Below are positions 1 through 27,365 of a stretch of DNA of 64,000 nucleotides, piece after piece (the stretch's first letter is position 1; the number at the start of each line of letters is the position of its first letter). The stretch spans positions 1,215,017 to 1,279,016 of the forward strand of contig CAVXFH010000002.1 of NCBI GenBank assembly GCA_963761035.1. The letters run 5' to 3'. The stretch is from an uncultured Gammaproteobacteria bacterium. GTDB lineage: Bacteria; Pseudomonadota; Gammaproteobacteria; DRLM01. Below the pieces are notes generated by a model, which saw only the letters and a list, made by a program, of their open reading frames with translations, made no database searches and was not told where the DNA came from. The position numbers and the translations under genes are program-made.

Positions 1-1
1 T

Positions 2-334
2 AATAAAAACCAAGCGGTTCAACTTTTTCTTTCGCTTTTGGTTCCACACAATGACTTTTACAACGTCTTTATAAAACTCACCCGTTGCATTCTTGCCCGA
101 AACCTTAAACTCATAAACCGTATTGGTTTCTGTGTCCAATATGTCAATTTTCTGGTCGAGGTCTGGCGCGACCAGAGCCTCGATTTGGTAGCGATCTGGA
201 TCGAGGGTGTGTACGGCAGAGCGCCATGCTTTGGCTATGGCCTGTGCATTACGAGTGTTATCAGAGACATCGTTATTGTCTTGGAGCCTTTGTTTGAAGG
301 CTACCTGGGCTGCTTGGATGATTGGATCGCTCAT
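2..334 (-). CDS. Cassette-encoded hypothetical protein, partial (runs off the window edge); possible PD-(D/E)XK nuclease-like motif
   Basis: My own translation of the minus strand gives MSDPIIQAAQVAFKQRLQDNNDVSDNTRNAQAIAKAWRSAVHTLDPDRYQIEALVAPDLDQKIDILDTETNTVYEFKVSGKNATGEFYKDVVKVIVWNQKRKKK... with no stop before position 1, which is why it is absent from the ORF track. The ATG is at 334-332, 13 bp inside the cassette boundary. The D..(n)..EFK pattern is only a weak hint of a nuclease fold. Confidence 0.45.
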   Translation of the reverse strand, partial: MSDPIIQAAQVAFKQRLQDNNDVSDNTRNAQAIAKAWRSAVHTLDPDRYQIEALVAPDLDQKIDILDTETNTVYEFKVSGKNATGEFYKDVVKVIVWNQKRKKKLNRLVFI

Positions 335-340
335 AGAAAC

Positions 341-417
341 GGCTAACGATCACAATAAGACGCGCCGCGGAGCGGCGTCGCAGTGCGCAAAGCGCACGAC
401 TTGATTGAGTTGTTAGG
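341..417 (-). other. attC recombination site (cassette 4 | cassette 5 boundary)
   Basis: GGCTAAC at 341-347 and GTTAGGT at 411-417 flank an imperfect palindrome with an internal GTGCGCAAAGCGCAC hairpin. Length is 77 bp. Confidence 0.6.
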
Positions 418-437
418 TAAGTCATATGAGATGTTCC

Positions 438-809
438 TCACAACCTGCATATAAGACCTCCAAGGGTGGCGAAGCCCATCGAGACAAGCCCACTGAGCAA
501 TGCTGAAAAAGCAAAGCTTCGGGCCTCTGGCTTGTCTTTCCAATCTGGGTGGTTCCAATTTGTCGCCATCTTAAGGGCTAACCAACCAATCATAGCCGTA
601 CCAGCACCAGTCAGGTTTACACCTACAACAACAGTGAAAAAGCATCTTTCAACTAAACCTGTGACTTCCGGCGGAACGCGCTTTGAGTTGGTTTCACTAA
701 GCGCAGTCTTCTCATCTAGGTCTATGCGAGAACGCAACCAATCTTTGAAATATTGCGTACCGAAGTGCCCTACCAAGAGGGAAAATAATAAACCTAATAT
801 CCACCACAT
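438..809 (-). CDS. Cassette-encoded membrane protein (about 4 predicted TM helices), unknown function
   Basis: 123-aa ORF with hydrophobic segments. ATG at 809 lies 16 bp inside the cassette boundary (ACCTAAC at 819-825). Confidence 0.5.
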   Translation of the reverse strand: MWWILGLLFSLLVGHFGTQYFKDWLRSRIDLDEKTALSETNSKRVPPEVTGLVERCFFTVVVGVNLTGAGTAMIGWLALKMATNWNHPDWKDKPEARSFAFSALLSGLVSMGFATLGGLICRL

Positions 810-818
810 GACTGATCT

Positions 819-914
819 ACCTAACGTTCGACGTAACCGGCCGGCGGAGGCCGAAGGCCGGAGCGAACCTGCAAGCGCAGCTTGCAGGCGGTCCGATTGA
901 CGGAGGGGTTGGGC
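819..914 (-). other. attC recombination site (cassette 3 | cassette 4 boundary)
   Basis: ACCTAAC at 819-825 and GTTGGGC at 908-914. Perfect internal palindrome CCTGCAAGCGCAGCTTGCAGG. Length is 96 bp. Confidence 0.6.
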
Positions 915-933
915 GTTGAGTGGGCCGGGGGAG

Positions 934-1368
934 CTACTTCAGCAGCCATATTAGTGAGCGAGCCAGCAAGGCGCCAAAGGTGAGACCGCCGCTAACGGCG
1001 AACAGATGATGCCACCAACGCGAAGTACGCGCGACGGAAACTCTCGCTTTCATTCGAGCAGCGCGCACTATTTCCACCCTGGTTGTGAAATCTGCAGCGG
1101 TGCGAGTTGCATCTTTGTCGATGGGCGGTAGAAGTACAAGAGACAGCGCGACAAAGGCACCAACTATGACGAGTGCGGCGAGCGCCAAAGTCGGGATGTG
1201 CAAGAGCGGGGAAAGGGAACCCGTGATTGCGCCGGGCTCCATGAACACGGCGGACAGCAGGTATGCGACAACGGCACCAGCCATCGCCGTATCTAGCGGC
1301 GTTTGCGGTGAGCGAAAGAGCTGAACAGTACGCGACACGATCTTACGACGCCCAACGCTCACAATCAC
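934..1368 (-). CDS. Cassette-encoded membrane protein, unknown function. The true start is probably the internal ATG at 1284, because the cassette boundary lies at 1355/1356
   Basis: Hydrophobic ORF. The track start at 1368 is a GTG outside the inferred cassette boundary. Confidence 0.4.
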   Translation of the reverse strand: MIVSVGRRKIVSRTVQLFRSPQTPLDTAMAGAVVAYLLSAVFMEPGAITGSLSPLLHIPTLALAALVIVGAFVALSLVLLPPIDKDATRTAADFTTRVEIVRAARMKARVSVARTSRWWHHLFAVSGGLTFGALLARSLIWLLK

Positions 1369-1432
1369 CGGCTGGTTTGGAGCGGCAGAGCGAAGCGGCG
1401 CCGCGTAATACCAGTCCGGTGGATTGTGTTGT
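1350..1432 (-). other. attC recombination site (cassette 2 | cassette 3 boundary)
   Basis: GCCCAAC at 1350-1356 and GTTAGCC at 1426-1432. Inverted repeats ACAATCACCGGCTGG / CCAGTCCGGTGGATTGT carry single unpaired bases, which resemble the extrahelical bases of attC sites. Confidence 0.5.
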
Positions 1433-1443
1433 TAGCCGTGTTT

Positions 1444-2007
1444 TTAAAACCATGGTTGCGCTTCCAACGCCTTGCGTAGCGAAGTTTCAACAAATGTAGG
1501 CGTGCGCCAAACGTACTCCGCCGCCTTTGCCTTTCCTTCACTGTCGAGGGATTGAATGTGACAAAGCGCGGCCTCGACTGAGAATGGCTTTTTGCATTTA
1601 CTCTTCGTTTGAAAGTTACTTTCCAGATCTGTCCAAATAACAACATCGATCTTTTTCTCTGACGCCCAATCTTGGATCGATTTTAGTACTTCTTCATCCC
1701 GTGCTTGTTTTCGAGAATTGTCGGCGAAGCAGAAACCGACATTTTTCAGTGTGGTTCCTTCCCGGCTTCGAACATCACAGATGGCGTCATCTGGATTATT
1801 GCGTTTGCTAAATGCGTATGCGACTTGACACGGCACTCCATACTTGGAATCCAGAACAAGGGTCAAAGCGGCAAATCTTGTTTGGGACACACGGGAAAAC
1901 TCGATCTTTAAGCTCGGGCCGTCAAACTGCCAATCCTCATGCTGTTCATCAAATTCGGGGCGTTTGTCCCAGAGCAATGACCCCCACCCCAGAATTGCGA
2001 TCTTCAA
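1444..2007 (-). CDS. Cassette-encoded cytoplasmic protein, possibly gamma-glutamyl cyclotransferase/ChaC-like fold
   Basis: 187-aa ORF. N-terminal ILGWGSLLWD resembles the YGSL glycine-rich loop of GGCT/ChaC/AIG2-like proteins. TTG start is preceded by a strong AAGGAG RBS at 7-nt spacing. Fold assignment is tentative. Confidence 0.5.
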   Translation of the reverse strand: MKIAILGWGSLLWDKRPEFDEQHEDWQFDGPSLKIEFSRVSQTRFAALTLVLDSKYGVPCQVAYAFSKRNNPDDAICDVRSREGTTLKNVGFCFADNSRKQARDEEVLKSIQDWASEKKIDVVIWTDLESNFQTKSKCKKPFSVEAALCHIQSLDSEGKAKAAEYVWRTPTFVETSLRKALEAQPWF

Positions 2008-2023
2008 TGGTGACTCCTTATAC

Positions 2024-2083
2024 GGCTAACGATAAAGCTCAGCCGCCGCGCTGTTTGCGGTCGGCTGCAGCGTATGGTTAGGG
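2024..2083 (-). other. attC recombination site (cassette 1 | cassette 2 boundary)
   Basis: GGCTAAC at 2024-2030 and GTTAGGG at 2077-2083, with an imperfect internal palindrome (GCTCAGCCG...CGGCTGCAGC). The stop codon of the 2078..2335 ORF lies inside the right-hand core, as is typical for cassettes. Confidence 0.6.
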
Positions 2084-2335
2084 GCGTCTTCTCTTGCCCC
2101 AACGCCACCCCAGTGGCTCACCCTTGAGCCAAGCAATGGCCGTAACTCCGACACCAAGGGCTAGAAAGTAAACTGTAAAAGCTACTGAATCGTGTCCTGG
2201 CGGAAAGAGGAATATGCCTGCCAGTACTAGCAGCGCAAAGCAAATCATCACAACATAGCCTTGCCAGGTACGAGGCAGTCCCCAACCCCAACCATACCGC
2301 TTAGCTGGAAACCAGTACTTAGGATCCTGAGTCAT
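2078..2335 (-). CDS. First cassette: small 2-TM membrane protein (KYWFPAKRYGWGWG N-terminus), unknown function
   Basis: 85-aa ORF. GAGGTGG RBS. ATG at 2335 lies 30 bp inside the attI-proximal crossover point. Confidence 0.5.
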   Translation of the reverse strand: MTQDPKYWFPAKRYGWGWGLPRTWQGYVVMICFALLVLAGIFLFPPGHDSVAFTVYFLALGVGVTAIAWLKGEPLGWRWGKRRRP

Positions 2336-2359
2336 AAAATTTCCACCTCGAACGAGTGC

Positions 2360-2440
2360 ACCTAACAGTGATTAGACAGCATATGGCTGTGTTTAAACAC
2401 AGACCTTTGCGGTATAGCACTCATTGGTAACCTCCCCACT
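2360..2440 (-). other. attI-like primary recombination site region (core ACCTAAC at 2360-2366)
   Basis: The first GTTRRRY-type core (minus strand GTTAGGT) lies between the first cassette and the intI 5' end. The extent toward intI is approximate. Confidence 0.45.
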
Positions 2441-2443
2441 TCT

Positions 2444-3279
2444 TTGACTTTATTGAGTTATGGTTTATGCTTGTGTTGCATATACCGCATTTCCGCCACC
2501 GCAATGCCAAGGAGGGCAATGATGGCGAAATCACCCTTGCTTGAGCGCCTGCGTGAAGCAATTCGCGTTCGTCACTATAGTATCCGTACGGAACGGAGCT
2601 ACGTCCAGTGGGTTAAACGATTCATCCTGTTTCACGACAAACGGCACCCGGCCGAGATGGGCGCTGTAGAAATCTCAGCCTACCTTACGCACTTGGCCGT
2701 GGCGCGAAAAGTCTCCGCTTCTACCCAAAATCAAGCCCTTAATGCGCTCAACTTCTTCTACCGCAATGTCCTTGAGCGGGATATGGGAAACTTGGAGGGC
2801 GTGGTTATGGCAAAACGTCCTCAGCGCCTGCCGGTGGTTCTGACTCGGCAAGAGGTAGAGTCCGTATTGCGCTACCTAAAGGGCGACAACTGGCTAATGG
2901 CTGCCTTGATGTATGGATCGGGCCTACGGCTCATGGAATGTCTGCGGCTGCGCGTGAAAGATGTGGATTTCGGTTATCAGCAGATTTTGATTCGCGACGG
3001 TAAAGGGCAAAAGGATCGGGTCGTGCCCTTCCCCAAGCGTTTGGCAGAGGCGCTGCGGGGACATTTACAACAGGTGCGGCAGGCTTACAAAAACGCGTGA
3101 ATTGCCACGCGCTGCGCCACAGCTTTGCGACGCATTTGTTGGAGTCAGGTTACGATATTCGCACTGTGCGGGAGCTGCTTGGCCATGCCGATGTGTCGAC
3201 GACCATGATCTACACTCATGTCTTGAACCGCGGCGGGCGCGGGGTGTTCAGCCCGCTTGATCAGCGGCCGGCCGGGTGA
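2444..3279 (+). pseudogene. intI: Integron integrase intI, inactivated by an internal ~225-bp deletion plus frameshift (fragments 2444..3100 and 3097..3279)
   Basis: Fragment 1 (RHYSIRTERSYVQWVKRFILFH...LPVVLTRQEVESVL...GSGLRLMECLRLRVKDVDF...[10 protein letters not shown]...QAYKNA*) aligns from memory to IntI1/VchIntIA residues about 10-200. Fragment 2 ([41 protein letters not shown]...GVFSPLD) aligns to the C-terminal box II/tyrosine region. About 75 aa between them are missing, and the fragments are in different frames. The missing part includes the IntI-specific extra domain. Confidence 0.8.
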
Positions 3280-3302
3280 TGAGGCATTGAGCTAGCGCTT
3301 TC

Positions 3303-3349
3303 ATCGTTTCTATCCCTCACCCCTACCCCTCTCCCGGCGGGAGAGGGGT
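3303..3349. repeat. REP-like palindromic element (CCCTCTCCC-N-GGGAGAGGG type), copy 1
   Basis: The string CCCTCACCCCTACCCCTCTCCCGGCGGGAGAGGGG is seen directly. Related copies occur at 6858-6990, 18665-18835 and 22962-23115. Confidence 0.6.
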
Positions 3350-3459
3350 TTCTGAATACGCTATTTGCGCGCCCTGGGGAGGTTTTGCAAATGCAGTCGT
3401 TGCTGTCAGCTATGCGGCAAGTCGGTATACTTCCCCTTCGCCTATAGCTTGGAAGTCCC

Positions 3460-5526
3460 ATGTCCAACCTGCTCGCCCAGGAGACCAGTCCCTATTTGTT
3501 GCAGCACGCCGAGAATCCGGTGGCGTGGCATCCCTGGAACGCGGCGGCCCTGGCGGCGGCGCGGCGCGACGACAAGCCGATCCTGCTCTCCATCGGTTAT
3601 TCCGCCTGCCATTGGTGCCATGTCATGGCCCACGAGTCCTTCGAGGATCCGGCTACGGCGGCGGTGATGAACGAGCTGTTCGTCAATATCAAGGTCGATC
3701 GGGAAGAACGCCCCGATCTCGACAAGATCTATCAGCTCGCCCATCAGATTCTCACCGGGCGCGGCGGCGGCTGGCCCTTGACGGTGTTTCTCACGCCCCA
3801 GGATCTGGTGCCCTATTTCGCCGGGACCTATTTTCCCAAGACCGCCCGCTACGGCATGGCGCCGTTCACCGAGGTGTTGCGCCAGGTCGCCGGCTTCTAT
3901 CGCGAGCGGCCCGGCGACATCGCCGAGCAGCACGGCCGCCTGCTGGAGGTCTTGCAGCGTCTCAGCGCCGCGGCGCGCAACGACGCGCCCTTCGATGCCG
4001 CGCCCCTGGATATCGCGCGCAATCAACTGGCCACCAGCTACGACGCCGATCACGGCGGCTTCGGCGCCGCCCCCAAGTTTCCCCATCCCACCCACATCGA
4101 ACGCCTGCTGCACCATTGGGCCTCGACCGCCGCCGCGGGCCATCCCGATCACGGCGCGCTGGACATGGCGCGCACCACCTTGATCAAGATGGCCGACGGC
4201 GGCATCTACGATCAATTGGGCGGCGGGTTCTGCCGCTACGCGGTGGACGCGCAGTGGATGATCCCGCACTTCGAAAAGATGCTCTACGACAACGGCCCGC
4301 TGCTCGCCCTCTATGCCCAGGCGTGGCAGATCGGCGGCGACGCCTTGTTCGAGCGCATCGTCCGGGAAACCGCGGAGTGGGCGATGCGCGACATGCAGTC
4401 GCCGCGGGGCGGCTACTATGCGTCGCTGGATGCGGATTCGGAACATGAGGAAGGCAAGTTCTACGCCTGGACGCCGGAAGAAGTGCGGGCAGTGCTGGAC
4501 GAGGCCGACTATCCCCTGTTCGCCCACCGCTTCGGCCTGGACCGCGAGCCCAATTTCGAGGACAAGTGGCATCTACATGTGTTCCAGGGTTTGCGCGCCC
4601 TGTCCCAGGAATTCTCCCTGCCCATCGACGCCATCATCACCCGCATCGATGCGTCGCGCCGCCGACTGTTCAAGGCGCGGCAGCAACGCGTGCATCCCGG
4701 CCGCGACGAAAAGATTCTCACCGGTTGGAACGGGCTGATGATCAAGGGCATGGCCGTCGCCGGCCGCGTATTGCATGAGCCCGCCTATCTCGCCGCGGCG
4801 GAACGCGCCCTGGATTTCATTCGCTCCACCTTGTGGCAGGACGGCCGTTTGCTGGCCGTCTATAAGGACGGACGCGCGCGCTTCAACGCCTATCTCGACG
4901 ATTACGTGTTCGTCATCGACGCCATCCTCGCGCTGTTGCAGGCGCGCTGGCGCGACGGCGATCTCGATTTCGCCGTCGCCCTGGCCGACGCGGTGCTCGC
5001 GCATTTCGAAGATAAAGACCAGGGCGGCTTCTACTTCACCGCCGACGATCATGAGCCATTGATCCATCGCCCCAAGCCGCTGACCGACGAGGCCACGCCC
5101 TCCGGCAACGGCGTGGCGGCGACGGTGCTGGGGCGCCTGGGCCACATAATGGGCGAGACGCGCTACCTCGATGCGGCGGAGCGCGGTCTGCGCGCGGCGT
5201 GGAGCGCGGTCGCGGAATTGCCCTATGCCCATGATTCGCTGTTGGCCGCCCTGGAGGATCAGCTCTATCCGCCGCAACTGATCGTGGTGCGCGGCGAAGG
5301 GGCCGCGCTTAAAGACTGGCAAGCGCGTATCGACCGCCACTATGCGCCGCGGCGCATCAGCCTCGCCATTCCCAATCACGTTATGCGACTTGCCGGCACC
5401 CTGGGCCACTGCGCGCCGCGCGGCGCGATCTGCGCCTATGTGTGCAGCGGCACCAGTTGTTCGGCGCCGATCACCGAACTCGGCGAACTGGAAACCCGGC
5501 TGGCGGAAACCGAGGCGCGGGCATGA
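3460..5526 (+). CDS. Thioredoxin-domain protein (YyaL/DUF255 family; thioredoxin-like N-terminus plus six-hairpin glycosidase-like domain)
   Basis: 688 aa. N-terminal ...PVAWHPW...[21 protein letters not shown]... motif is typical of COG1331/YyaL. Confidence 0.8.
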
Positions 5527-6848
5527 CGCCTTCTCCTGTTCGCAAATTATCGCCGCGTTCAAGTGCGATGTTGGCGGCGATCACTTTGTTGATGATGATC
5601 GCCTTCCACTCCGCCGGCGCCGCCCCATCGCCAAACCCCTGGCTGCAAACCTCCCCGTTGCTCGCGCCGCGTTCCGGCGCCGGCGTTCTTGAAGTCAACG
5701 GCGTCATCTACGCCATCGCCGGTATCGACGGCAAGCAGTTTCTGCGCAGCAGCGAATACAGCGCCATTCATGACGACGGTACCCTCGCCGCGTGGCGGGC
5801 CGGCAGCGAACTCAATGAAGCGCGCGGCTTCTTCGGCGTGGCGGCTCATGGGGGTTTCCTCTACGCGGTGGGCGGCGGCAACGGTCCCAGCGGTCACCAT
5901 CTGTTGCGCAGCGTGGAACGCGCCGCCGTTCGCGCCGACGGCAGTCTCGGTCCGTGGCGGGAAACGCAACAGCTCAATCTGCCGCGGCGCTGCGCCAAGG
6001 TCGTGGCCTCGGGCGACTATCTTTACGCCATCGGCGGTTTCGGCGGCGCCTTGCTGGATTCCGTGGAACGGGCGCGTTTCAACGGCGACGGCAGTCTCGG
6101 CCCGTGGGAGATGCTCCCGGACAAACTCACCCGGCCCCGCTACATCCACGCCGAGGCGGAAGTGAACGGCCGTCTCTATATTGTGGGCGGGCATGCCGAG
6201 CAGGGCGGCATGGGCGAGGCCGCCGTGGAATTCACCGCGCTGAGCAAGGAGAAGGATCTGTCGTCATGGCACGGCACCGCCGCCCTGATACAGGGACGTT
6301 ACGGTCTGGCCGCGGCCAGCCACGGCGATTACCTCTACGCCCTGGGCGGCATGAGCGGCGCGACCTTCTACGATGTCATCGAAAAAAATCACGTCGACGC
6401 CGACGGCGCGCTGGGCGTATGGCACGACACGACACCGCTCCCCGCGCCGCTGGCGGACCTGGGCGTCGTCGTCTATGGCGATTGGATGTATGTCATAGGC
6501 GGCACCAGCCCCAAGGGGTATTTCAATAGCGTGTACTACGCCCGCATCGACAAGCGCGGCGATCCGGCGCCGGCCGCGGCGGGCAACGCGCCGCGCCGGC
6601 CGCGCCGGTCAACCGCGTGGAACTGCCCAACGGCGGCACGGTCATGCAGTCGCTGGAAGGCGGGACCTATATCTATCTGGAAGTGGATACCGGCGCAGGC
6701 AAGGAGTGGCTGGCCGCCGCCCATGCCGACATCGCGGCGGGCGATCACATCCGCTACAGCGACGGTATCTGGATGCGGGATTTTTTCAGCAAGTACCTGC
6801 AGCGGCGCTTCGCCGCCATCCGTTTCGTGGGTAATCTGGAAAAGGTGA
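5523..6848 (+). CDS. Secreted Kelch-repeat beta-propeller protein. Its 3' part is probably frameshifted (see 6617..6859)
   Basis: Signal peptide, then six repeats of hydrophobic-Y-A-hGG-x-G ([48 protein letters not shown]). The last ~85 aa in this frame are W/S/P-rich nonsense, while the -1 frame looks protein-like. The ATGA overlaps the stop of the upstream gene. Confidence 0.65.
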
Positions 6849-6859
6849 CGGCGGAGTAG
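6617..6859 (+). CDS. Probable displaced C-terminal domain of the Kelch protein (alternative frame), or an independent small ORF
   Basis: The frame starting ...[87 protein letters not shown] has normal composition. It overlaps the nonsense tail of the 5523..6848 frame. Confidence 0.4.
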   Translation: MELPNGGTVMQSLEGGTYIYLEVDTGAGKEWLAAAHADIAAGDHIRYSDGIWMRDFFSKYLQRRFAAIRFVGNLEKVTAE

Positions 6860-6990
6860 TTCTTTGCTTCCCTCTCCCTTCGGGATTTATGCCCTGCAGG
6901 GTAGAGGGATCGAGGGTGAGGGCGCATCGAGGAGAACCAAGCCCCCTCACCCCTGCCCCTCTCCCACAGGGAGAGGGGTGAAACCTTCAA
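6858..6990. repeat. REP-like palindromic elements, two tandem units (copy 2)
   Basis: TTCCCTCTCCCTTCGGGATTTATGCCCTGCAGGGTAGAGGGATCGAGGGTGAGG ... CCCCTCACCCCTGCCCCTCTCCCACAGGGAGAGGGG. The first unit is near-identical to a unit at 18700-18760. Confidence 0.65.
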
Positions 6991-7469
6991 TCGCGGAAGT
7001 TATTGAACTGCAGCGGCAACTCCAACTTCTCCTTGCGCAGCATGGCGATGACCTCCTGCAAGTCGTCGCGCTTCTTGCCCGTCACCCGCACCTTGTCGCC
7101 CTGAATGGCGGCCTGCACCTTGAGCTTGGCGTCCTTGATGCGTTTGACGATGTCCCTCGCCAGCTTGCCCTCCAGGCCCTGGCGCAATATCACCGTCTGC
7201 CGCGCCTGATTAAGCGCGATCTCCGGGTCCTTGGCCTCCAGGCAGGCGATATCCACGCTGCGCCGCGCCAGCTTGTCCTTGAGGATGTCCATCATCTGCT
7301 TCAACTGAAAATCCACTTGGGCGAACAGGGTGATCTCCGCCTCCTTGCGTTCAAAGCGGGCATCGCTGCCCTTGAAGTCGAAACGGGTGGTCACCTCGCG
7401 GTTGGCCTGATCCACCGCGTTGGTCACCTCGTGCATATCCACTTCCGACACTACGTCGAATGATGGCAT
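6987..7469 (-). CDS. yajQ: YajQ family (UPF0234) nucleotide/c-di-GMP-binding protein
   Basis: [26 protein letters not shown]... is the canonical YajQ N-terminus. The ORF-track start at 7571 is an upstream extension. Confidence 0.8.
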
Positions 7470-14806: not shown

Positions 14807-16285
14807 TCAACCGGCGGCCTTTACCATCCCGGCGGGAGATGGGTTGTTCCAGACAAGATCCAGCTCGCGCGCGGCGCGCACGTCGTCGAGCCGCTTCACC
14901 GGCAAGCTGTGGGGGGCGCCCTTCACCAGCGCCGGCTCGCATTCCGCCTCCCGTTGAATCTGTTCCATGGCCGCGACGAACCCGTCCAGGGTGTCCTTGC
15001 TCTCGGTCTCGGTGGGCTCGATGAGCAGACACTCGGGCACCAGCAACGGAAAATAGGTGGTCGGCGCGTGGAAGCCGTAATCCAGCAGGCGCTTGGCGAA
15101 ATCCATGGCGGTGACATCCAGTTCCTTGGCCTGCGTCTTGAGGGTCACGATGAATTCATGGGTGGCGCGCCGCTTGGGGAACGCCGGTTTGAAACCGCGT
15201 TTGGTCAATTCCGCCATTAAATAATTGGCGTTCAGGGTGGCGAACTCGGCGACCCGTTCCATGCCTTCGCGGCCCAGCATGCGGGCGTAGATATAGGCGC
15301 GCAACAGCACGCCGGCATTGCCCATGAAGGCGGACAAGCGGCCGATGCTTTGCGGACAATCTTTTTCTGTGAGCCAACGATAGCTGTCGCCCTCCCGCGC
15401 CACCCGCGGTATCGGCAGGAACGGCAACAGACGTTCGCTCACCGCCACCGGTCCGGCGCCGGGACCGCCGCCGCCGTGGGGCGTGGAAAAGGTCTTGTGC
15501 AGATTCAGATGCACCACGTCGAAACCCATGTCGCCCGGCTTGACCTTGCCGAGGATGGCGTTGAGATTGGCGCCGTCATAATAGAGCAGGCCGCCCGCCT
15601 GGTGCACGATCCTGGCGATGTCGACGATGCGCCGTTCGAACACCCCGAGGGTGGACGGATTGGTGAGCATGATGCCGGCGGTGTGCGGACCCACCGCGGC
15701 GCGCAGGGCATCGAGATCCACGTCGCCCTGATCGTCGGTGGGAATCTCCCGCACCGTGTAGCCGCACATCACCGCCGTGGCGGGATTGGTGCCGTGGGCC
15801 GCGTCGGGCACGAGGATCTCGCGGCGCGCCGTGTCGTTACGGGCGTCGTGATAGGCGCGGATCATGGCCACGCCGGCGAATTCGCCTTGGGCGCCGGCCA
15901 TGGGCGTCAATGACACACCGCGCATGCCGGTGACGTCCTTGAGTATCTCCTGCAAGTCGTATAGACAGGCGAGGAAGCCTTGACTCAGGGACGCCGGACT
16001 CAAGGGATGGCGATCGCGCAGGCCCGGCAACAACGCCAAGCTGTTACAGGCCCGCGGGTTGTACTTCATGGTGCAGGAGCCCAGCGGATAAAAATGGGTG
16101 TCGATGGAGAAGTTTTTCTGCGACAGGCGCGTGTAGTGGCGCACCACCTGTAACTCCGAGGCCTCGGGCAGCGCGGGCCGCCGTTTGCGCCGCAGCGCAT
16201 CCGGTATATCGTTCACCGCGGCGACCGCCTTGGGCGCCTGTCCATAGGCGCGGCGCCCGGGACGGGATTGTTCGAAGATCAACAT
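14807..16285 (-). CDS. gcvPB: Glycine dehydrogenase (decarboxylating) subunit 2
   Basis: [14 protein letters not shown]-terminus and PLP-dependent P-protein C-terminal-half motifs. The ORF-track start at 16390 overlaps tpx and is an extension. Confidence 0.85.
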
Positions 16286-16304
16286 AGTTACCTCTTTATG
16301 ATGG

Positions 16305-16802
16305 TTACAGCGCCGCCAGGGCCTTTTCGTAATTGGGCTCCTGGGCGATCTCCGGCACCAGTTCCGTGTACCCCACCCGGTTATCCGCATCGACGACCAC
16401 TACCGCCCGCGCCGTAATACCGGCCAAGGGGCCGTCCTGAATCAGCACGCCGTAATCCCTGGCGAAGTCGTGCGAGCGCATCATGGACAGGGTAACGACA
16501 TTGGCGATGCCTTCCGCTTTGCAGAAGCGGCCTTGAGCGAAGGGCAGGTCCGCGGAGACGGTGAGGATCACCACATCGTCGCGGCCCTTGGCATAGTCGT
16601 TGAACTTCTTGGTGGAGATGGCGCATACCGAGGTGTCGAGGCTGGGTACGATGTTCAATAACTTTTTCTTGCCCTTGTACGTTCCGAGTTTGACATCGTT
16701 GAGATCCTTGTCCACCAAATGGAAGTCCGGCGCGGGGCTGCCGACCGCGGGAAGATTGCCGTTGGTGTGGATCGCATTGCCTTTGAGCGTAATCGTCGCC
16801 AT
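16305..16802 (-). CDS. tpx: Thiol peroxidase (atypical 2-Cys peroxiredoxin)
   Basis: [15 protein letters not shown]...[18 protein letters not shown]... is the canonical Tpx sequence. The gene sits between gcvPA and gcvPB. Confidence 0.85.
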
Positions 16803-18664: not shown

Positions 18665-18835
18665 ATCCCTCATCCCAACCCTTCTCCCGGAGGGAGAAGG
18701 GCTTTTTCTTCCCTCTCCCTCCGGGATTTATGCCCTTCAGGGTAGAGGGATAGAGGGTGAGGCAACTCTACCTAAATCTTTTCACCTACTCTCCCTCTTC
18801 CTTCGGGAGAGGGATGCATGGTTTACCACAAAGCT
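18665..18835. repeat. REP-like palindromic elements, about 3 units (copy 3), in the gcvH-gcvT spacer
   Basis: CCCTCATCCCAACCCTTCTCCCGGAGGGAGAAGGGC ... TTCCCTCTCCCTCCGGGATTTATGCCCTTCAGGGTAGAGGGATAGAGGGTGAGG ... CTCTCCCTCTTCCTTCGGGAGAGGGAT. Confidence 0.65.
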
Positions 18836-20034: not shown

Positions 20035-20245
20035 AAATAAAAAGGGCAACGCCGCGACGCGGCATTGCCCCTCTGTCCGGCTACCTGAGAGCTTTTAGCA
20101 CCTTCGGTGGGCCGCGTGCATAAGCGGCCTCTCTCCAGAGTCAACGTCCCGCTGCGGTCCTTTTGCCTGAGCGATTCCGGGCTGGTTGCGCCTTCGGCGC
20201 CCCGCGGCTGGCGCAGGGTCTCTCCCGCGGGAGACAAGGTTGAAG
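20035..20245 (-). promoter_or_regulatory. Tandem glycine riboswitch with terminator expression platform, leader of the gcvT operon
   Basis: Minus strand carries two aptamer cores, each with a GGAGAG / CTCTGGAGAGA element, CGCCGAAGGCGCAA or CACCGAAGGTGC, and CTCAGGCAAAAGGAC or CTCTCAGGTAGCCGGACAG. These are followed by a GC hairpin (GGGCAATGCCGCGTCGCGGCGTTGCCC) and a T-run immediately upstream of gcvT. Confidence 0.8.
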
Positions 20246-22958: not shown

Positions 22959-24339
22959 GCTTTACCATCTCCCCCTCTCCCTCCGGGAGAGGGCTGAGGT
23001 GAGGGGATTTAGCACGAGGAATCTGCTCGGATGAACGCGTACCGTAGAAAACGGAATTCATTTCCCCATCTCCCTCATCCGGCTCTTCGGGCCACCTTCT
23101 CCCGAATGGGGGAAGGATGAGTGGCAGTCCCCGCGCCAAGCGCGGCAACTTGCCCGCCAATCCCATGGTGTGGCGGGTCAATATATGTTTCAAGGGCGGC
23201 AACAGATCCACGGCCAGCATGCCGGCATTGCGCAACACGCGCACCGGCGACAAGGGGTTGGCGAAGAACCGCGCCAGGCCGTCGGTGAAAGCGATCATCT
23301 TGCTATGATCGCGGCGGCGCCAAGCGGCATAGGTCTGCAACACCTCGAGATCGCCGATGTCCTTGCCGGCGTCGGCGGCATCGCTCAACACCTCGGCGAG
23401 CACCGCCACATCGCGCAGGCCGAGATTGAAACCTTGTCCCGCGACAGGGTGCAAGGTATGGGCGGCGTTTCCGATCAACGCCAAGCGCGGCCTGACGTGT
23501 TCGCGGGCGCGCACCAACTGCAGGGGATAGGCGCGGCGTTTGCCGAGTCGCAGGAAGGTACCCAGGCGGGTACCGAAGCGCGCTTGCAGGGCTTGCAGAA
23601 ACGCCGCCTCATCCAACGCCATCATCTGCTCGGCTTGGTCGCCGCGCACCGTCCACACTACCGAGCAGCGATTATCGCTCATGGGCAACAAGGCCAGGGG
23701 ACCGCTGTCGGTGAAACGTTCGAAGGCGCAATGGCGGTGCGGACGTTGCGGGGTGATATTGGTAATCACCGCGGTCTGGCCATAATCCCAGCGCCGGGTA
23801 TCGATGCCGAACCATTCACGCACTTGCGAGGCGGCGCCGTCCGCCGCCACCACCAAGCGAGTGGTCAAACGGCTCGCGACACCCGCGCAATCCATCGCCA
23901 CCACCCCGTGATCGCCGCCGCCGGACACCTGGGTAACGACGGCGGGACACAGCAAGGTCACAGTGGAAAGCTGCCGCAAACGCGCCGCCAGCGCCGCGCC
24001 CATGGCGCGGCTCACCGCCACGTATCCCAGTGCCGCCACACCTGCGTCGCGGTAATCCAGGCGGGTGAAACCGAAGCGGCCGCGATCGGAAATATGAATG
24101 GATTGAATCGGCGTTGCATCCGATTGCAAGGCCTCCCACAAGCCCATGCCTTCGAAGATACGCCGCGTGCCGTAGGCGAGCGCGATGGCGCGATCGTCGT
24201 AACTGGGCTGGTCGTCGGAGCGAAACGGCACCGCTTCCAGCACCGCGATGCGCAAGGGTGTGGCGCTCAAGGCGATGGCGAGGCTGGCGCCTACCATGCC
24301 GCCGCCCACAATGATTACGTCATAATCCGTATCAGCCAC
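22951..24339 (-). CDS. ubiH: 2-octaprenyl-6-methoxyphenol hydroxylase-like FAD monooxygenase, with a ~55-aa C-terminal extension encoded by a REP-like repeat
   Basis: MADTDYDVIIVGGGMVGASLAIAL. The pepP-ubiH-ubiI order is conserved. The ORF reads through repeat copy 4, giving ...PPFGRRWPEEPDEGDGE...SPLPEGEGEMVKRG. Confidence 0.7.
   Translation of the reverse strand: MADTDYDVIIVGGGMVGASLAIALSATPLRIAVLEAVPFRSDDQPSYDDRAIALAYGTRRIFEGMGLWEALQSDATPIQSIHISDRGRFGFTRLDYRDAGVAALGYVAVSRAMGAALAARLRQLSTVTLLCPAVVTQVSGGGDHGVVAMDCAGVASRLTTRLVVAADGAASQVREWFGIDTRRWDYGQTAVITNITPQRPHRHCAFERFTDSGPLALLPMSDNRCSVVWTVRGDQAEQMMALDEAAFLQALQARFGTRLGTFLRLGKRRAYPLQLVRAREHVRPRLALIGNAAHTLHPVAGQGFNLGLRDVAVLAEVLSDAADAGKDIGDLEVLQTYAAWRRRDHSKMIAFTDGLARFFANPLSPVRVLRNAGMLAVDLLPPLKHILTRHTMGLAGKLPRLARGLPLILPPFGRRWPEEPDEGDGEMNSVFYGTRSSEQIPRAKSPHLSPLPEGEGEMVKRG
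22962..23115. repeat. REP-like palindromic elements (copy 4) at the ubiH/ubiI junction
   Basis: CTCCCCCTCTCCCTCCGGGAGAGGGCTGAGGTGAGGGG ... CCCCATCTCCCTCATCCGGCTCTTCGGGCCACCTTCTCCCGAATGGGGGAAGGATGAG. Confidence 0.6.
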
Positions 24340-27164: not shown

Positions 27165-27365
27165 CTGGCATCCTCTGCGGTTCCCGTTTGTGGGCCAAGT
27201 TACTCCTTGACCCTAATATTTACCCTTCGGGGACGCTACGACGGCGTCGGTGTGCATGTCCGTATCAATCGGAAAGCCTAAAGACGCGGCTAGCATTCCC
27301 ACGTGAACCTTTTGGTTCAAGGGCCGTGGTTCGCGACGGTTCATGCGGAGGATGCCTTGTTCTCT
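27165..27365 (+). ncRNA. ssrS: 6S RNA (SsrS)
   Basis: Position between zapA and the 5-formyl-THF cyclo-ligase gene, as in E. coli and Pseudomonas. The segment GGAAAGCCTAAAGACGCGGCTAGCATTCCCACGTGAACCTTTTGGTTCAAGGGCCGTGGTTCGCGACGGTTCATGCGGAGGATGCC matches E. coli 6S (GAAGCCUUAAAACUGCGACGACACAUUCACCUUGAACCAAGGGUUCAAGGGUUACAGCCUGCGGCGGCAUCUCGGAGA). 5'/3' closing-stem complementarity (GGCATCCTCTGCGG / CCGCGGAGGATGCC). Upstream TTGCGC-N16-TAGAAT promoter. Ends are approximate. Confidence 0.8.

Follow-up and report, generated by a model that had tools for sequence, protein, structure and literature searches.

Integrons are gene-cassette capture systems, and functional and broken orthologues of their integrase gene, intI, are often found in related strains. 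An insertion carrying the I2 helix is the means by which IntI proteins recognize folded single-stranded attC sites. According to Demarre et al., this IntI-specific insertion is about 25 amino acids long (PMC2095811), and the IntI-specific domain as a whole corresponds to residues 186 to 245 of VchIntIA, the Vibrio cholerae integron integrase IntI4 (PDB 2a3v) (Cambray et al. 2011, PMC3108266). The catalytic residues are, in IntI1 numbering, R146, K171, H277, R280, H/W303, and Y312 (PMC2095811), and a LexA box with the consensus CTGT-N8-ACAG is described for the intI promoter region (PMC3108266). The inactive share of intI genes has been put at nearly one third (Nemergut et al. 2008, PMC2426708) and at 43 to 46% (Cambray et al. 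2011, PMC3108266). The screen in the latter study considered indels of up to 100 bp only and required a match to the IntI-specific region (PMC3108266). Clusters of attC sites without an integron integrase are referred to as CALINs (Cury et al. 2016, PMC4889954), and IntegronFinder relies on a profile of the IntI-specific region, intI_Cterm, which detects IntI as well as intI pseudogenes near CALINs (PMC4889954).

The closest described systems are the inactivated intI genes of chromosomal integrons, e.g., those of Xanthomonas (PMC2426708, PMC3108266), in which attI, attC sites, and cassettes accompany an integrase gene disabled by a frameshift or deletion, the orthologues in related lineages are intact, and the pseudogene is otherwise fresh. 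The locus described here lies in a 64-kb stretch of DNA (the window), and it has all of these features. It differs from the surveyed intI pseudogenes in that a single deletion of 214 bp takes out exactly the IntI-specific region and in that the host lineage is uncharacterized. With the functional integrases VchIntIA and IntI1 the gene in the window shares the LGH...IYTHV boxes and an orientation divergent from the cassette array, and a candidate LexA-type box lies upstream; in contrast to VchIntIA, it has no equivalents of residues 186 to 257 (approximately), including the I2 helix region, and its frame is broken. We conclude with high confidence that a single internal deletion of 214 bp (71 codons plus 1 nt) inactivated this chromosomal-integron integrase gene.

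Results

The original prediction had assigned two open reading frames (ORFs) on the plus strand, 2444..3100 and 3097..3279 (the latter with GTG as first codon), to one interrupted intI gene. Their translations were as quoted there (ORF list and sequence), and the two lie in different frames (2444 = 2 mod 3; 3097 = 1 mod 3). The 5' fragment matched the NCBIfam model TIGR02249, "integron integrase," over profile positions 1 to 185 of 315 (E = 8e-75) and the 3' fragment over positions 260 to 314 (E = 3.5e-30), leaving 74 profile positions (186 to 259) without a counterpart in either. Neither fragment alone reached the cutoff of TIGR02249 (265 bits, versus 252.1 for the 5' and 105.4 for the 3' fragment); despite these scores, IntI (TIGR02249/NF011946) was the top-scoring family for both. 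In Pfam, the 5' fragment matched Phage_int_SAM_4 (PF13495) and the first half of Phage_integrase (PF00589, positions 1 to 86 of 172), and the 3' fragment matched the final quarter of the latter family (positions 128 to 169 of 172). The 5' fragment also aligned with VchIntIA residues 5 to 185 (E = 4e-42). Models of XerC, XerD, and XerA matched the fragments far more weakly than TIGR02249 did, and the scores of the 5' fragment with XerC (90 bits) and XerD (77 bits; cutoffs of about 330) were far under its IntI scores. Coordinates, translations, and the collinear alignment with TIGR02249 and VchIntIA confirmed that two ORFs in different frames make up one IntI.

Full-length IntI proteins of 320 to 330 amino acids numbered in the thousands in the protein collection, and the best of these were 77 to 81% identical to the 5' part (81% for the intact protein P0002, over 191 amino acids and without gaps). 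Amino acid identity of the 3' part to intact IntI proteins was also 77 to 81%. The start of intI was placed at ATG 2519, which follows a Shine-Dalgarno sequence (AAGGAGGG, 2509 to 2516) and is aligned with the start of the orthologues; the gene does not start at TTG 2444. So delimited, the 5' part (2519..3078, plus strand, approximately codons 1 to 187) encodes, at its N terminus, the SAM-like DNA-binding domain, followed by the first half of the catalytic domain. The 3' part (3079..3279, plus strand, in the other frame) carries the LGH...IYTHV boxes and the C-terminal TIGR02249 and PF00589 matches given above, and ends with the stop codon TGA at 3277 to 3279.

The window from 2519 to 3290 was aligned with the DNA of three close intact intI genes, L083, L084, and L085 (alignment A1). 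Against these genes (76 to 80% nucleotide identity) a single gap of 214 nt was found, in alignment columns 561 to 774. Since 214 is 71 × 3 + 1, one event explains both the missing residues and the change of frame; an alternative history, a deletion combined with a small indel, would give the same net result. Alignment with IntI references and with the same locus in relatives thus yielded one gap with a shift of frame. An internal deletion had been predicted and was found, at 214 nt instead of the approximately 225 bp suggested.

The junction lies in the bases GCGGC (3076..3080, plus strand), within which 214 nt of the orthologues are absent and the break is not placeable more exactly; the sequence spanning it is GGTGCGGCAGGC. 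Homology in the downstream frame starts at approximately 3076 to 3079 in tblastn searches and alignments (compare AGIEKTVTCH in VchIntIA and AALLKPASCH in close relatives). This is about 20 nt upstream of 3090 to 3100, where the junction had been expected; the TGA at 3098 to 3100 is instead the first stop after the frameshift, six out-of-frame codons downstream of the junction, and closes the out-of-frame tail QAYKNA (3080..3100, plus strand). Read in the other frame, the same bases encode AGLQKRV, which is homologous to IntI. No foreign DNA was found at the junction. The four to five ambiguous bases may represent microhomology, and the deletion would have arisen by slippage or illegitimate recombination at the short GCGG(C) repeat.

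A sequencing error in the run of five A residues at 3089 to 3093 was considered as the source of the frameshift and rejected, since homology in the C frame (AGLQ/KRV) is unbroken across the run. A mosaic origin of the more divergent stretch 2972 to 3078 was also dropped; judged by eye, about half of its residues are identical to each of the IntI clades. In an exact search, the junction 26-mer had no match in the metagenome contigs. The truncated protein P0003 (192 amino acids), which is the product of this very ORF, was the only short relative in the protein collection and formed a cluster of one.

The deleted block corresponds to residues 188 to 258 of P0002 and approximately to residues 186 to 257 of VchIntIA. 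Because this range covers residues 186 to 245, the whole IntI-specific domain is gone, and the predicted removal of this domain together with a shift of frame was borne out alike by the unmatched profile positions, the 214-nt gap, and the residues absent relative to VchIntIA. The lost positions take in 19 columns with at least 95% conservation over 114 intact IntI proteins; ALxxKYP, W..FP, and RHH are among them. The prediction had also included loss of part of the catalytic region, which holds for the catalytic domain but not for the catalytic residues: all six are still encoded, split by the deletion two plus four across the two frames. The 5' part holds the first Arg (in GSGLR) and the Lys (in GKGQKDR), and the 3' part holds His-x-x-Arg (in HALRH), His (in LGH), and Tyr (in IYTHV). 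They are not in one polypeptide, as the stop at 3098 to 3100 intervenes. With codon 187 (approximately) fused out of frame to codon 259 (approximately), translation from ATG 2519 would end at this stop, with 187 native residues followed by 6 foreign ones, and the C-terminal four of the catalytic residues (His-x-x-Arg, His, and Tyr) would no longer be translated. Since the IntI-specific block is lost and these residues are left untranslated, the locus alone is predicted to be unable to excise or insert cassettes. The domain content points to a loss of integrase activity, and the cassette array would stay frozen in the absence of another IntI acting in trans.

Orthology of the locus is anchored by its conserved chromosomal neighbor yyaL (3460..5526, plus strand), which encodes a thioredoxin-domain protein (PF03190, with the name taken from source records) and is 83 to 87% identical at the nucleotide level to yyaL of L084, L085, L081, and L082 (83 to 86% for L084 and L085). 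In L084 and L085, an intact intI (321 and 326 amino acids, respectively) immediately precedes the orthologous yyaL, and in L082 an uninterrupted intI 3' end lies upstream of the gene; L081 has no intI beside yyaL. Intact intI genes at the same yyaL site in relatives imply that the gene in the window is a derived, broken copy of the resident integrase, and the presence of intI in L082 and its absence from L081 imply that occupation of the site by an integron varies among close lineages. In L081 (positions 1 to 347) and L082 (positions 1 to 862), a near-identical yyaL and about 190 nt just upstream of it are common to both; further upstream the two differ, with the intI 3' end in L082 and an unrelated minus-strand gene in L081. 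PriA encoded in the window was 71 to 85% identical to metagenome proteins and shared about 60% identity with that of sulfur-oxidizing gammaproteobacteria (a Solemya symbiont, Endothiovibrio, and Thiohalomonadaceae). Judged by sequence, the host is an uncharacterized gammaproteobacterium.

From the start codon of intI back to ACCTAAC at 2359 to 2365, the window was similar to L085 and L083; to the left of this motif similarity was lost and the cassettes differed, which is the behavior expected of an attI site. The attI core, GTTAGGT (GTTRRRY; 2359..2365, minus strand), forms the boundary of the first cassette and is the exact point at which similarity to L085 and L083 sets in. The attI site adjoins intI, and the cassette array is divergent from the gene. 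Between attI and the intI start lies a LexA-box-like palindrome, CTGTGTTTAAACACAG (2387..2402, plus strand), which is unchanged in L085 and differs in L083 by one spacer change. No other CTGT-N8-ACAG occurs in the 64-kb window; a single match is not significant by count (0.4 expected; a match in 32 of 100 shuffles), and the position of the palindrome 117 nt upstream of the start codon is outside the −100 to +50 window of PMC3108266. SOS control of the intI promoter is, from this motif, a lead and not a result. A sigma-70-like promoter match, TTGACT-16-TATGCT (2444..2471, plus strand; 9 of 12 positions in a consensus scan), is a consensus match only and lies in a region conserved among the orthologues. 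With the LexA-like box still conserved, the control region seems to have persisted beyond the loss of the gene.

Candidate attC sites were sought as imperfect palindromes with RYYYAAC ... GTTRRRY cores, and their hairpins were scored against shuffled controls. At least four sites of 60 to 103 nt were found, all on the minus strand and each located 3' of a minus-strand ORF, and the array continues past the left end of the window. The first site (2024..2083) follows cassette ORF 2335..2078, has inverted ...AAC/GTT... core boxes, and is predicted to form an imperfect bottom-strand hairpin (−19.9 kcal/mol, z = −3.75). The second (1350..1437) follows cassette ORF 2007..1444 and has the cores GGCTAAC ... 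GTTGGGC (−23.6 kcal/mol, z = −3.43; repeat families D1 and D17). In the third (819..921), which follows the cassette ORF ending at 934, the R' core is GTTAGGT (825 to 819) and the position of R'' is ambiguous, at 908 to 914 or 915 to 921 (−26.5 kcal/mol, z = −2.80). The fourth (341..418) follows cassette ORF 809..438 and has the cores ACCTAAC ... GTTAGCC (−20.6 kcal/mol, z = −2.94; D1 and D17). When the four sites were aligned (alignment A3), the ..AAC and CGTT.G cores were invariant.

According to the ORF list, the array contains four promoterless cassette ORFs on the minus strand (85, 187, up to 144, and 123 amino acids; 438..2335) and a fifth (328..<1, minus strand) that extends beyond the edge of the window. 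A Pfam search assigned no family to any of the cassette ORFs, and an Rfam search of the whole window at gathering thresholds gave no attC match and returned a 6S RNA and a tandem glycine riboswitch only. The GC content of the cassette region was 46 to 60%, versus 62 to 69% in the flanking chromosome to the right. The biological picture is that of a complete integron with a dead integrase, in which attI, attC sites, and cassettes are in place. As a separate observation on base composition, the integron as a whole (1 to 3200; intI, 51 to 56% GC) is 10 to 15 percentage points below 3400 to 7000, though the intI-yyaL arrangement is common to relatives. The first cassette ORF ends in a stop codon (TAA, 2080 to 2078, minus strand) that falls inside the R'' core of the attC site of that cassette (window positions 2078 to 2083). 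Such placement of a cassette stop codon within the R'' core is a common arrangement.

Both intI fragments aligned with intact proteins without gaps, stops, or further frameshifts. In the retained part, 3 of 96 highly conserved columns deviated (T to V and L to F in RVVPFP; Q to R in TVRELLGH), a number that intact homologues can also show in a leave-one-out comparison (mean of 1.3 deviations, maximum of 6). The lesion is therefore a clean event and not diffuse decay, as originally proposed. Pairwise dN/dS to relatives was 0.04 to 0.07, from which it follows that nearly all divergence was gathered under purifying selection and that the lesion came late; we infer a recent date for the deletion. 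The suggestion that the event is dateable was not supported: dS to the nearest relatives was saturated (above 2 or incalculable), and no closer intI allele was found in the protein collection, the species-representative genomes, or the metagenome contigs. A scan of the contigs of species-representative genomes with P0003 returned 80 IntI loci, all with at most 65% identity, and no close species.

Other elements of the window were recorded alongside the integron. REP-like GC-rich hairpins of the form CCCTCTCCC-N3-GGGAGAGGG occurred in five copies (3327 to 3347, 6957 to 6977, 18680 to 18700, 18793 to 18813, and 22973 to 22993), versus 0.02 expected. One of these is located between the intI 3' end and yyaL, and related copies are present in the longer intI-yyaL spacer of L082. 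The tandem glycine riboswitch (20063 to 20237, minus strand) is located upstream of glycine-cleavage genes (gcvPB, 14807 to 16390), and the 6S RNA gene is at 27169 to 27355 on the plus strand. These two Rfam matches are ordinary chromosomal features.

Discussion

Apart from inactivation by a single deletion, three other accounts of the locus have to be weighed. Neighboring remnants of two different tyrosine recombinases would account for the difference in frame between the ORFs, and both fragments do have weaker matches to XerC and XerD. Both nevertheless scored best in IntI models, at profile positions that are collinear and do not overlap, and against the same orthologous genes they were separated by one gap, with no extra DNA between them. 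Alignment showed the fragments to belong to the same IntI, and an origin from unrelated recombinases, the test named in the original prediction, is refuted; the chance that it is correct is negligible. It is also very unlikely that the 214-bp gap is an artefact of assembly or consensus building (e.g., because the population was mixed or a region was collapsed) and that the intI gene of the organism is intact. The source is a single contig of 3,019,963 bp from a lineage of uncultured type and so possibly derives from long-read metagenome data, and neither the protein clusters nor the metagenome contigs held a second sequence with this junction. However, errors in long reads are typically indels of one to a few nucleotides, not of 214 nt, the borders of the gap share only 4 to 5 nt and form no repeat relevant to an assembler, and both flanks are clean coding sequence.

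The third account accepts the deletion and differs in what it makes of the product. The truncated N-terminal protein (approximately 193 amino acids) might still be made from an SOS-type promoter and be kept for a function of its own, e.g., binding to attI or attC without cutting, or poisoning of a second IntI. The start codon, the Shine-Dalgarno sequence, the promoter-like site, and the LexA-like box are intact and conserved, and the 5' part is free of further lesions. The untranslated 3' part is equally undamaged, though, a finding more in keeping with a recent event than with selection acting only on the 5' part, and the low dN/dS stems mostly from the time that preceded the deletion. Moreover, no similar truncated form was found in the other genomes or metagenomes searched, and intI pseudogenes are common and short-lived (PMC2426708). 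Retention of the product is, on this evidence, very unlikely. A wider proposal makes the deletion itself the selected state, with the array frozen and an SOS-expressed N-terminal fragment occupying attI or attC or hindering incoming integrases; separately, some of the reported CALINs could be integrons with such screen-invisible lesions. We consider this wider reading, too, highly unlikely to be right. With inactivation by one internal deletion as the preferred explanation, the gene is an ordinary intI pseudogene, another example of a very common kind.

The lesion bears on how such loci are detected. An allele like that of the window would be missed under the criteria of PMC3108266, since its deletion exceeds 100 bp and leaves no specific region to match. 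Likewise, since the region modeled by intI_Cterm is deleted, the array would probably be reported by IntegronFinder as a CALIN. Unlike a CALIN, it still adjoins an integrase remnant, attI, and a promoter region and is not an orphan array.

A second IntI homologue with an internal deletion in the same region was encountered on a 5,012-bp metagenome contig (P0086, 302 amino acids; ...ALERKYP/RVADVRKPVSCH...). Its deletion is independent of that in the window: it is in frame, shorter (about 44 amino acids), and has other end points, and the IntI lineage of the protein is another one (about 61% identity). The motifs W..FP and RHH are lost, and ALERKYP is kept. P0086 may thus be one more integrase that is dead or altered, and it hints that lesions in this region of IntI may recur.

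An annotation should join the two ORFs as a single intI pseudogene and label positions 1 to 3279 of the window as a chromosomal integron whose integrase is dead. The locus adds one more case to a documented pattern, in which integrases are often lost and arrays persist. A deletion of exactly the IntI-specific region escapes screens that are defined by that region (PMC3108266, PMC4889954), and loci with such deletions are likely counted as integrase-less attC clusters.
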